64,000 nucleotides of DNA from Psammoneis japonica. Taxonomy: Eukaryota. Below the pieces are notes generated by a model, which did no database searches, was not told the DNA's origin, and saw only the letters and a program-made list of their open reading frames with translations. Location of the stretch: assembly GCA_008632985.1 (NCBI GenBank), contig QPGO01000144.1, forward strand, positions 124,001 to 188,000, given 5' to 3'. Below are positions 30,211-33,904 of this stretch, in pieces; the first letter of the stretch is position 1, and each line of letters begins with the position of its first letter. Position numbers and translations under genes: made by a program.

Positions 30211-33200
30211 ATGCCCAAAGTGAGCAAAAAGGACAAAAGAAAACAAGAGCCAAAGGAGAGGCTTGCAGCAGAAAGAGCTCAGGTCATCGGAAGCAGCCCT
30301 GTTGCCTCAGCTGTCGTCTCACCTCCGCACCATTCGGAGTTTTCTCCTCCCTCCATGTCATCTGCACGGAACGACCTTGGAGACGGATCAAGTCCTGACG
30401 ATCATCACACAGTTGACTTCTCGAGCGTCGTGGACATCGTTCTTGGCGTTAATGGGTCAAATGAAGAACAAGCTGCCGTTTTGAGCAAAACAATTGCAGA
30501 CTTTGATGAAGCCATCAGCGACCCAAGACTCACTCAACACGTGACACTGCTCGAAGGTGGACAACACTGCAGCCAAAGTGGACAATGTCGCAACCAATTT
30601 GCAGATCTGTCAACACCGGATGTGTCAACGCCGGTGAGTGAGTTTGCACATCATTGTCACAAGCCAAACAATTTGAATGGGCAACTGCGGCAAGGAAAGA
30701 ACGTGCCCAAGGCAGCAACGCGGGCGAAGAACAGGGCCAAGCACAGAATCGTAGCTGCAACACTAAATGCAGGCGACTTCGATCAACAAAGACTGGCATT
30801 ACGAGATGCCCTTGCAGACCCAAAAGTAAAAGCAGCATCATCATCAATTGGCTTCAATTCGGAAGAGGCAAAAGTCGGCATGCAAATGGTTCGAAACACC
30901 AGGAGATTCTTGAAAGCCGCAAGGGAAACAAAATCAGAGAAAGGTGGACCTGCGGACAAACGGCGTGCAATTGCCAATGGCACTGGATTGACAACAGCAA
31001 ACACGCCACCTTCATCCCCTGAAGATGCAGCAGCAGTCGCCGGCAGCAAAAAACGAAAGAGGTCTGGCGCAACGCACTCAGCACTGAGCCGCCAGCTTGG
31101 CATCCCAATTGCCACTGGATCTCGCTTGTTTGCCAAGTCTGAGAAGAAGAGAAAGAGAGCAAAGACGGGGGATGAAGCCTCACATGAATTGGTCGAGAAA
31201 AAGAATTTCTGGTCAAAGTGTCCCGAGGAGCTCATTGAAGGCTTGAGAGATTTGATTGTGAAAAACAGATGTGTCAAGGACTCTCCGCTTAAAAATGACA
31301 CCATTTGGAAGAGAAACTTCAAAGGTGGGCATTTCTGTCATTGGGTTGCTTTGTCTCTGCTGTCACAAATTTGCCGCTAACGTCATGTGCAAACATGCTG
31401 TCATGAATGCAGGCCAGGTCATAAGGAGAGATGACGGCAAGCCAGAAGAAATGCAGAGGAAGCTGCTCACCGTGTCGCCACAAGAACTGCACAATGAAAT
31501 GATAAAAGATCCCGATGGTGGTGGATTTCGTGGAGCTCGTGACAATGATGGAGCCGCATTTGTCACCGAGATGGCCCTCAGAAAATGCATGCCCAACTGG
31601 GTGTCAAGAATGACAAAGAGGCACAAGCAAATGTGTGGCTGCGAAGTTTGTGTCATGTGCAATGACGTGCAAGAGTCACTGAACCACTGGCGCGGTAGAA
31701 GGGTGCAACGGCTCACGCACGAAACGGAATCGATGGACGAAGGACCATCCAAAAGGGCTCGACTGGAAGAGGTGGCGCAGTGCAAAGCTGATGCATTGCA
31801 CGAAGATGGCACGCCTCTTCACAAAAGAGCATGGGATGCCACCGAAACTGTCGGCTGTGGCAACGTTGAAGGGTTCTCGCATCCTCACTTCAACTGTGTT
31901 CTCAGGAGATGCCCCAACTGCCCTGCCTGCCAAGTCCCCAAAATGGAGAAGGATTGCGATGAAGCCATCAGCCACAACGTGTTCTCAACTTGTGAGAAAT
32001 GCAACATCCACGGCGCGGGTCACATTCGCGAGGGAACCAACACATGTGAGGTGTGTGAGCAGTTGACTGAGGAGGAAAAGGCGAAGCTCAAGAAAAGGCC
32101 CAAGGTTGCCTCTAGAAAATTGAGGGCAAGAGTCAGAGCCCCGATGAAGGATTTCATGGCAAAAAACGGAATGCACTCCAAACATCTCGAAAAGATGTTC
32201 CACCACAGGACGCATGTCATCATGTTGGGGAGCAATGGATGCGCAAAGTCGAGAAAGGAGGAAGCAGATGGGGATGACGGAGTTGTCCTGACACAACGCG
32301 ATCACGCTGAGCGGTGCGATGCCGCACCTGACGGAGAGACAATGTCTGAAAGGTTTGGAAACGATCGAAACGTGTCAATGGAAGGAGCTGCCGTCAACTT
32401 AAAGGTTCAAGGCGAGACAGATCGGAAGACAGTGTTCTGCTCACATTTGTCGGACGAGAAACGGCAGGATGCGGCCACCGTGCACGAGAACATCAAAGCC
32501 ATGCTTGAGGACCTCGTAGAGCGGGGTGAAATGACACGAAAAACTATGAAGAAAATGTTGGACCATGTGGATGGCTGCTGCTGCCAGTGCCGAAGTGGCC
32601 CTGTCTTGTTTCTTCTCTCACTGCTTGCGTTTGAGTACAAAATCACACACGACCGAGCGGTGTCAGCTCCTGGGCATGGCAAGGGCGTGGTAGACTCACA
32701 AAATGGAGTTGACAAGACAGAACTGGACAAGTTCTTCACTTGTCTTGCATCCCCACCCGAGGCTGTAGAAGATGACAAGAAGAAAATGAGCATTCATGCA
32801 GTGGATGGAGAAGAGCGCACTGGCCTGGCAGCTGCAGCCTTTGAGGTCTTGAGTGATCCTGACAGGGCACACGGAGTCGTCAGTCACTCGTGTCGAAGGA
32901 AGCGTCACATGGACAGGAAGACAAAAGAGCGACGTTGCATTCTTCGTCCTGAGGATCTTGCAAAATGGCATGACCTGAAAATGAAAGTGTTGGGATTTGA
33001 AAAAGGTGAGTGCAACGGCTTGCTGGCACACCACAATCTCATCACGGACTTCATGCCAGGGCCGAGCTCCACAGTGGCACGCCGGATGCCTTGCAGCTGC
33101 CCGGGGTGCCAAGAAAGGAAGTCACGTGAGTGGGTCAGCAATGTGGACGCAAAGGACCAACCTCGGCATGCAGGGCCTTGCAAAGAATGTGTGTTCTGGC

Positions 33201-33904
33201 CAACATTCCGCATCGACAACACCAAAGGATGGAACGATCACAAGATGTTGACATTCGGGATGAAAAAGGACTGTGACGACGATGACGCAGTCGACGCGGA
33301 TGGCGTTGCGTTGAGAGGCCTTGGCAAGACTCTGTCAGAGAGTGTCTTGGATGGTGGGTACGGAGCATACGAAGTTTCCGGAGACAATGATTGTGACTAT
33401 TACCTGGTGAGGTGGGTGGGAACACCATGGAAAGTGGAAGAGGATGGAGAGATTGTGGAGGGTGAGAATGCAGTTAGGGTGAGCAAAGGTGAAATGTCAT
33501 GCAAGGCAGAGTGGTTCTACACGGCACCTGGCACACGGCTCTGGTTTACACCTTCGACAGAGCGCTGCATCGTTCGCATGCAGCAAGTGCTGGCGGCAGA
33601 TCTTGACCTTGCGCCGATTGGCAATGGCAATAAATTGCCGACGCATCTTCCAAGGCAAACTGTAGCGGATGCGAAGAGCTTGGGAGCCATGAAGGTGAAA
33701 GAAGAAGACCACGATGCTGTGATGGATGAAAGTGAAAGGCGTGATGGGGTAGACTTCAAAGAGATTGAGGAAGACGAGGAAACGGGAGATGATGGAGACG
33801 GCGAATACTATAGCGGTGATGCTGGGGGTGAACATGATGATGTTGGCAGCGACCAGGAGGAGCGGCAAAGTAAACTGTTCTTGCCCAAACTCAACAGAGC
33901 CTAA
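30211..33904 (+). CDS. Sola2-like transposase (~1200 aa after intron 31325-31412), heavily Tyr->Cys/His substituted and probably inactive
   Basis: Motifs DHAERC (cf. DFxENY), HLSDEKRQD, DGCCCQCR (cf. DGxxxQYK) and GHGKGVVDSQNG (cf. HGKGPCDG). A GT..GCTAAC..CAG intron joins the 30028 and 31271 ORFs in frame (K-G|QVIRR). Confidence 0.85.

Follow-up and report, generated by a model that had tools for sequence, protein, structure and literature searches.

How does a transposase gene keep an uninterrupted frame of about 1200 codons while losing nearly all of its tyrosines? This question is raised by a 64,000 nt stretch of eukaryotic DNA from Psammoneis japonica (contig QPGO01000144.1, positions 124,001 to 188,000; G+C ~48%), here called the window and numbered from its first letter, in which a 1201-aa open reading frame (ORF) at 30211..33904 lies within a Sola2-like DNA transposon of 5324 bp (29746..35069, forward strand). 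The original prediction, made from the letters of the sequence, held that this frame had been killed by missense changes, with TAY codons turned into TGY or CAY and hence Tyr into Cys or His. Our analysis makes it highly probable that the transposase of this recently inserted element lies in a tract hypermutated from TpA to TpG or CpA, by a host process or by one confined to silenced DNA.

Tyrosine loss in an open transposase frame

The frame starts with the ATG at 30211 and closes with a TAA ending at 33904, and it contains no internal stop after removal of a predicted GT..AG intron of 88 nt (31325..31412, on the forward strand like both exons). Judged from the sequence, this splice would join exon 1 (30211..31324; 371 codons plus one base), which is colinear with the relatives and has no Tyr codon, to exon 2 (31413..33904 including the stop codon), introducing neither a stop nor a gap relative to the related proteins, ten of which align gap-free across the predicted junction. 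The spliced product contains 8 Tyr among its 1201 residues (0.67%), next to 3.4% Cys and 3.8% His. A single Tyr before ~33350 had been noticed earlier; this is Y780 in the motif FEYK (codon 32636..32638, forward strand), the only one upstream of 33359 in the composition of the ORF. The other seven Tyr codons lie in a less mutated 3′ part of the ORF (33359..33811, forward strand), which was recognized from composition and the TA scan. For the part encoded by exon 2, 0.97% Tyr and 8.4% Cys plus His compare with medians of 3.4% and 6.0%, respectively, in 152 relatives. The 3′ part also encodes DYYLVRWVG..W (33395-33440), which resembles what we take to be a chromodomain-like motif; Pfam reported none. 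Around its end, three TA dinucleotides of the window (33806-33812) read TG or CA in another contig of the sample (run X1), and a further sample contig retains TA downstream of 33359-33811 where the window reads CA, giving a patchy pattern.

The fate of the missing tyrosines was read from an alignment of 26 near-full-length relatives, in which Tyr accounts for 1.8-4.3% of residues. At the 17 columns with a Tyr majority, the window copy has Tyr twice, His five times, Cys three times, Phe four times, Trp twice and Met once. Cys and His had been suspected at conserved positions in DHAERC and QCR, and both motifs are indeed affected. The first catalytic-Asp motif, RDHAERC (32297..32317, forward strand), corresponds to RDYAERL in the relatives and to DFAENY in Sola2, and its Y297, a Tyr in 23 of the 26 relatives, is encoded here as His (CAC). 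In the second catalytic-Asp motif, DGCCCQCR (32570..32593, forward strand; relatives DGCAKQYR, Sola2 SDGxxxQYKN), Y392 is Tyr in 24 of the 26 relatives and Cys (TGC) in the window. Thus, the homologs carry Tyr, not Cys or His, at the affected columns. All family-invariant columns, acidic residues included, are intact in the window copy.

The loss is concentrated on tyrosine. The window deviates at 20 of the 106 columns conserved in at least 80% of the relatives; six of the seven Tyr columns among them hold Cys or His, compared with deviations in 14 of the 99 other columns (Fisher p=1.4e-4). Three of the latter fit the loss of TA as well, namely S470G (T|AGC to T|GGC), L548P (CTA to CCA) and I558M (ATA to ATG). 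Changes of Ile and Leu codons had been proposed as a check; at the 14 majority-Ile columns, Ile was kept in only three, with Val in five, Met in three and Thr in one. One deviation at a conserved column, A554V (GCG to GTG), is of the CpG type.

Three environmental relatives show the same replacement. The protein P0065 has Cys or His at nine of the 12 Tyr columns that it covers and Tyr at none, and P0150 and P0124 have Cys or His at four of four and three of six Tyr columns, respectively. Their choices between Cys and His differ from those of the window at the same columns. These Tyr-erased relatives suggest that a TA-erasing process is at work in uncultured organisms and natural populations. 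Two environmental contigs, L045 (over its whole length) and L057, are partially depleted in TA, with observed/expected ratios (o/e) of 0.31 and 0.39; a contig at 0.31 carries one of the three Tyr-erased relatives.

Sola2 is a superfamily of eukaryotic DNA transposons, reported by Bao, Jurka and Kapitonov in 2009. A left terminal inverted repeat of 27 nt (29746..29772, forward strand), free of TA and CG, is 100% complementary to the right one (35043..35069, reverse strand), and both are flanked by a 4-bp target-site duplication, GTGA (29742..29745 and 35070..35073). In a contig of run X1, the match to the window breaks off at 29745 and the next bases are those following 35073; because this empty-site contig skips 29746-35073, both ends of the element and the duplication are fixed. 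A paralogous empty site within the window (12460-11950) was considered and rejected, as its alignment is not clean. Repeat comparison resolved the 3′ non-coding part (33905..34640, forward strand) into three to four degenerate tandem copies of ~195 bp. Judged by contig depth, the internal part of the element is present in about two to three related, diverged copies in the sample, some with small insertions or deletions. Contig depth at 29500-29900 and 34927-35328 reaches ~1300-6600, against ~65 in single-copy parts, so that the DNA just inside and just outside the ends belongs to a very high-copy repeat; for the ends and the surrounding repeat the depth is ~5000-6600; gapped inverted similarity in the flanks extends past the 27-nt ends.

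An exhaustive profile-free search with the exon-2 product recovered 1255 relatives at E<=1e-3 and 101 at E<=1e-30, almost all of them unnamed metagenomic proteins; the diatom Thalassiosira exigua contributes one, annotated as hypothetical. The query had no match to itself in the protein collection, and Pfam searches with both exon products and the 26 relatives returned nothing informative. Residues 274-506 of the exon-2 product were modeled as an RNase H-like DDE core with a mean predicted local distance difference test score (pLDDT) of 82.6. In a wider structural search, the top matches of this predicted core were retroviral integrase cores (Z 9.8, root-mean-square deviation 3.5, 145 aligned residues), Mos1 (Z 9.0), Metnase and IstA; with Foldseek against the PDB, the best match reached only E = 1.0e-3, just outside the cut-off. 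The order of the motifs in the relatives, RDYAERL, EIQS.HFG and DGCAKQYR, parallels that of DFAENY, QDEIQS.HW and SDGCAGQYKN in the Sola2 rows of a published alignment (Bao and Jurka 2013, PMC3627910), a comparison of motifs by eye that used no statistical profile. In general form, D(F/Y)AE.., ..EIQS.H.. and ..DG(C/A)..Q(Y/F)(K/R).. follow each other in the same order in both. The element further resembles Sola2 in its short inverted ends, its large transposase (~900-1300 aa) and the length of its duplication, which in Sola2 is 4 bp (PMC3627910). It differs in the sequence of that duplication, GTGA here, whereas the cited Sola2 examples are A/T-rich; the flank here is itself TA-erased. Taken together, the 4-bp duplication, the inverted ends, the DDE/RNase H-like fold and the agreement of motifs with the published alignment support the Sola2 label that the element had been given.

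Directional and regional loss of TA

In the ORF region, TA has an o/e of 0.15, compared with 0.41 for the whole window. CG stands at 0.73, in line with the earlier remark that many CpGs are still present; TG and CA are enriched, and the dinucleotides other than these four are near expectation. The depletion extends to the intron, the untranslated parts and the flanks of the element to the same degree as in the ORF. Scanning in 500-bp steps together with TA positions identified TA-poor blocks in which TA o/e is 0.0-0.2 and TG+CA o/e 1.6-2.2, altogether ~25 of the 64 kb, or about 39% of the window. At their edges, values switch to normal within ~100-300 bp, and sequence complexity is normal. The block that holds the element (27283..37526) also covers other repeats, ~2.4 kb to the left and to the right of it, and includes a patch, 28090-28703, that is only partly depleted. 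Further blocks lie at 1..2517, 5558..12473, 52727..54923 and 61949..64000, the last of which continues past the window end and is also CpG-poor, as is the second, where CG o/e falls to 0.0-0.16 over 6001-10000 and the longest TA-free run of the window spans 1875 bp (6270-8144). One more block, 40555..41944, is a duplicated piece of host DNA that is TA-poor, in contrast to its normal parent copy at 43433-44571. Within the block of the element, inverted repeats of 31-33 nt (88-90% complementary) around ~330-400 bp at 28524-28985 resemble a miniature inverted-repeat transposable element.

The transposase family itself is not TA-poor, since 74 metagenomic relatives have TA o/e values of 0.31-0.93. 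The cause of the tyrosine loss is regional and not gene-specific. Long Tyr-free, Cys/His-rich ORFs had been anticipated elsewhere, and in the window they occur where TA is scarce: ORFs of at least 180 aa have median contents of 0% Tyr and 11.3% Cys plus His in the TA-poor blocks (n=12), compared with 2.5% and 5.1% in normal DNA (n=24).

A pattern of this kind might in principle arise by chance, through base composition, or from an assembly or sequencing artefact. We found no point in favor of these explanations and give them practically no credence: chance is excluded by the TA-free runs of up to 1875 bp together with the TA o/e of the relatives, the runs lie in DNA of normal complexity and ~48% G+C, dinucleotides besides TA, CG, TG and CA are near expectation, and an independent public run contains 118 contigs that agree with the stretch at identities of at least 99%.

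The direction of change was established from pairs of mutated and normal copies; in each of four such pairs, one copy has normal TA (o/e 0.55-0.84). The youngest pair consists of a mutated short repeat at 1163..1464 and its unmutated copy at 27012-27312, with 92.6% identity across 312 columns. The normal copy has 19 TA, of which 14 became CA (nine) or TG (five) and five were kept, while 16 of 17 CpG were retained; T>C or A>G made up 16 of the 20 substitutions. TA had changed at 74% and other sites at ~2%, a historical ratio of roughly 60-fold. An older pair (40500-41800 vs 43380-44700), whose mutated copy duplicates the end of a host FG-GAP gene together with its flank, shows the TA of the normal copy as TG in 14 cases, CA in 13, TA in two and otherwise in six, and its CG as CA in 13, TG in 12, CG in 12 and otherwise in seven. 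In a third pair (8500-8900 vs 26550-26150), TA became CA six times and TG three times, with two other changes and none kept. By comparison, two control pairs of normal copies kept 46 of 66 and 50 of 59 TA, with a symmetric spectrum. The unmutated partner of the youngest pair belongs to a TA-normal repeat copy with 19 TA (26914-27312) just outside the TA-poor block, whose sister copies at 1163-1960 and 53172-53580 are erased; this copy is either very recent or escaped.

Other copies in the sample contigs point the same way. Among the 40 differences listed, beyond which there are 560 more, the window has CA or TG against TA in 17 and the reverse in three, and TG or CA against CG in seven and the reverse in two; of the 11 differences of other kinds, eight cluster at one end of an alignment. 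The loss of TA is directional and strand-symmetric, and the polarity proposed at the outset, from TA to TG or CA, is shared by the Tyr of the relatives, the paralogue pairs and these contigs. Over ~1.9 kb, the only differences between the window and the near-identical contigs, at 30356 and 31421, are both TG or CA against CG, a hint of recent or polymorphic CpG changes in the tract of the element.

Not all TA dinucleotides were affected alike. We compared the 138 TA surviving in the poor blocks with the 1616 TA in normal DNA by symmetrized tetranucleotide. Survival per base was lowest for ATAT (0.011) and ATAC (0.019), rose through ATAG (0.044), ATAA (0.088) and GTAC (0.089) to CTAC (0.16), GTAA (0.21) and CTAG (0.21), and was highest for CTAA (0.44) and TTAA (0.47). 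Per strand, susceptibility follows the order TAT >> TAC > TAG > TAA.

CpG is also lost from these tracts, in a second process that is slower and comes after TA loss. The CG o/e of the blocks ranges from ~0.7-1.0 at 28500-35000 down to 0.0-0.16 at 6001-10000. This change of CG to TG or CA in the same tracts is what deamination of 5-methylcytosine would look like; it is slower here, as the youngest pair lost 14 of its 19 TA compared with one of 17 CG.

The effect on stop codons was less simple than had been proposed. It had been suggested that the process removes TAA and TAG and creates no stops, and both hold: TAA plus TAG fall from 1.70 per 100 triplets in normal DNA to 0.37 in the poor blocks, and none arises from a sense codon. 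The total density of stops drops little, from 3.48 to 2.61 per 100 triplets, as TGA rises from 1.79 to 2.24, and a general lengthening of ORFs through the loss of TAA and TAG was therefore rejected. The other five frames across the ORF contain 15-52 stops. The frame stays open because the change from TA to TG or CA makes no stop from a sense codon, not because stops are rare; it is an inherited, real gene and not a by-product of general stop scarcity. Few other mutations have had time to occur, since frameshifts are absent, the ends are perfect and the duplication is intact.

Mechanisms that could erase TpA

The most probable course of events would be the following. A cut-and-paste transposon would have inserted into a high-copy repeat, recently enough for its ends and target duplication to be perfect still. 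Afterwards, the host or some process limited to silenced DNA would change TpA into TpG or CpA, whichever the strand, and would do so tens of times or more faster than any other substitution arises. In coding sequence, this change turns TAY (Tyr) into CAY (His) or TGY (Cys), ATA into ATG or ACA, CTA into CCA, and T|A at a codon boundary into T|G; TAA can turn only into TGA or CAA and TAG only into TGG or CAG, so that a change from sense to stop is impossible, and the codons for Asp and Glu are untouchable. As no new stops arise and Asp and Glu codons are out of reach, the frame and the catalytic acidic residues survive while nearby conserved Tyr are lost. A slower and separate decay of CpG to TpG or CpA follows there, as cytosine methylation of the tracts would lead one to expect. 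The data show the direction of the change, its regional nature, its speed against the background, its sequence context and its effect on the protein; we infer that the tracts represent silenced or methylated chromatin and that the transposase is probably dead. Thus, the idea that transposable elements are killed here by missense changes is supported in that conserved Tyr are lost, and death of the enzyme is the probable consequence.

With regard to the chemistry, adenine deamination in a 5′-T-A context is the presumed route. The natural tRNA substrate of ADAT enzymes has U33 directly 5′ of the edited A34. The same regional process could instead act on thymine, by hydroxylation of T (a 5-hydroxymethyluracil or base J-like modification through TET/JBP enzymes) and subsequent mispairing with G or error-prone repair. 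A>G and T>C are indistinguishable in the sequence because TA is self-complementary, and TA>CA and TA>TG are about equally frequent in the three pairs (9/5, 13/14 and 6/3) and in the protein (His 5, Cys 3), as either chemistry predicts. In dinoflagellates, 5-hydroxymethyluracil is said to favor TpA and TpC and to mark repeats. TpC is not depleted here, its o/e in the region being 1.17, which argues against the thymine route. In addition, the sole paper on this signature proposes adenine deamination, likewise without proof (10.64898/2026.01.13.699255). We therefore regard a thymine-based origin as rather unlikely.

A different possibility is a live transposase under selection to avoid TA, for instance to escape a TA-recognizing host factor, with Cys and His tolerated or even adaptive. 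The 1201 open codons, the perfect inverted ends, the preserved family-invariant residues, the two to three related copies and the many copies of the ends and flank in the sample would all suit an active element. Selection on the protein does not explain why TA is just as scarce in the intron, in the untranslated parts and in ~2.4 kb of unrelated repeats to either side, why a host-gene duplicate and short repeats were changed alike, or why conserved Tyr were lost at six of seven columns against 14 of 99 other conserved ones. An open frame is expected from the mutation spectrum without selection, and other copies in the sample carry small insertions and deletions. This makes a live, TA-avoiding transposase very improbable.

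Hyperediting of double-stranded transcripts from A to I by an ADAR-like enzyme, fixed through reverse transcription, would share the T-A context with the 5′-neighbor preference of ADAR, as stated in the same preprint (10.64898/2026.01.13.699255). Such a route would leave retro-copies, whereas the element belongs to the cut-and-paste DNA transposons and is flanked by a target duplication, its intron is present and TA-poor, and the mutated tracts are contiguous genomic blocks that run over unrelated sequences and non-transcribed flanks. We consider this route next to impossible.

Several observations and features of the analysis weigh against hypermutation of a silenced tract as set out above. 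The 3′ end of the ORF (~450 bp) is far less mutated and has much more TA than the rest of the element. The family-invariant columns are all intact, so that the transposase may have residual activity. Adenine deamination is not favored over a thymine-based route by any result here. The limits of the blocks were judged by eye in the 500-bp scan and refined with TA positions, the context ranking lets TA in the window's normal DNA represent the ancestral sequence, and the share of TA lost from this copy, about three quarters, is an estimate from the composition of the relatives (o/e 0.15 against a median near 0.62).

Related systems, genomic setting and significance

The process itself has a precedent: a 2026 preprint (Mettrop et al., 10.64898/2026.01.13.699255) describes TpA hypermutation of an integrated giant virus and virophage in Bigelowiella natans. 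Two viral inserts followed in mutation-accumulation lines acquired 231 de novo mutations, of which 230 were A>G or T>C at TpA; the rate was ~1000 times background, and an ADAT2-like adenine deaminase was proposed as the cause. The B. natans genome contains 124 clusters of depleted windows in ~95 Mb, and DDE and reverse-transcriptase domains, as well as one zinc-finger motif, are overrepresented among its 324 low-TpA predicted genes (10.64898/2026.01.13.699255). A literature search for other cases of mutation from TA to TG or CA in repeats, diatoms included, found only this preprint. The parallels are close: mutations are almost exclusively T>C or A>G at TpA, TpA depletion is accompanied by enrichment of CpA and TpG, the depleted windows are clustered, and the targets are foreign or selfish DNA, here a transposon and short repeats. 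There are differences as well. The targets in B. natans are viral inserts, whereas here they are a Sola2-like transposon, short repeats and a host-gene duplicate; depletion is nearly saturated here (o/e 0.0-0.2) compared with 0.45 in the nucleocytoplasmic large DNA virus (NCLDV) region of B. natans; depleted DNA makes up ~39% of the window here, against the 124 clusters in ~95 Mb there; and CpG is co-depleted here in the older tracts. The two organisms are probably of different lineages. CpG, tyrosine and stop codons are not mentioned in the available parts of the preprint. New here are the tyrosine erasure with an open frame, the order TAT>TAC>TAG>TAA, the CpG decay in the same blocks and the mutated host-derived duplicates.

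Repeat-induced point mutation (RIP) of ascomycetes is similar in that dinucleotide-specific transitions disable transposons within bounded tracts of repeated or foreign DNA. RIP converts CpA to TpA and thereby raises TA and A+T and creates many stops, whereas the change in the window removes TA, slightly increases G+C and makes no stops. Furthermore, RIP hits both copies of a duplicate, in contrast to the pairs in the window, where one copy is untouched. RIP-like targeting of all repeat copies was accordingly rejected. APOBEC3 and ADAR enzymes share deaminase-type, context-specific hypermutation directed against selfish nucleic acids. Their substrates are the single-stranded cDNA (C>U) or double-stranded RNA (A>I) that replicating elements produce, whereas here resident chromosomal DNA was changed, including non-transcribed flanks and a DNA transposon.

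The genomic setting is that of a eukaryotic host with mostly intron-less ORFs. In protein searches with the host ORFs, the best matches were 53% and 38% identical, and the named eukaryotic relatives of three genes come from diatoms. No protein near-identical to the host ORFs used was found in the collection, not even for a gene whose paralogue in the window is 84% identical; the proteome of this genome is therefore absent from the collection, which speaks against the annotated B. natans reference. Pfam searches with 80 other ORFs of the window returned ordinary host domains and no giant-virus hallmark genes, Rfam gave no match, and the Atlas search returned only eukaryotic clusters and DUF7869. 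Paralogous host genes (trypsin-like, FG-GAP and ricin-lectin) form inverted pairs with 72-92% DNA identity, located at 3315-5460 and 23839-22050, 15807-17846 and 26443-24413, and 55756-57767 and 60330-58289, which suggests large inverted segmental duplications in the window. The nearest matches of the FG-GAP proteins (15803-17800, 24421-26385 and 44215-46077) are proteins of Bacteroidota with type IX secretion system (T9SS) sorting domains (36-38%), and a diatom match is only distant; judged from these sequences, the FG-GAP genes are possibly a bacterial acquisition.

These results may indicate that a second, non-chlorarachniophyte eukaryote runs a TpA-erasing defense, far more pervasively, in which dead transposon genes become open, Tyr-free and Cys/His-rich ORFs; we advance this tentatively and lean slightly toward doubt. 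If true in an unrelated lineage, TpA erasure would be a broader eukaryotic phenomenon, with a much stronger signal in this system. Genome annotation would be affected in two ways. TA-poor tracts yield long Tyr-free, Cys/His-rich ORFs that will be predicted as genes and may score as zinc-finger-like or orphan proteins (a zinc-finger motif is among those enriched in the low-TpA genes of the preprint, 10.64898/2026.01.13.699255), and TA-erased elements will be under-detected by homology searches and transposon classifiers. Moreover, the ratio of TA loss to CpG loss provides a relative clock for silenced DNA, and the order TAT>TAC>TAG>TAA constitutes a testable fingerprint of the enzyme.

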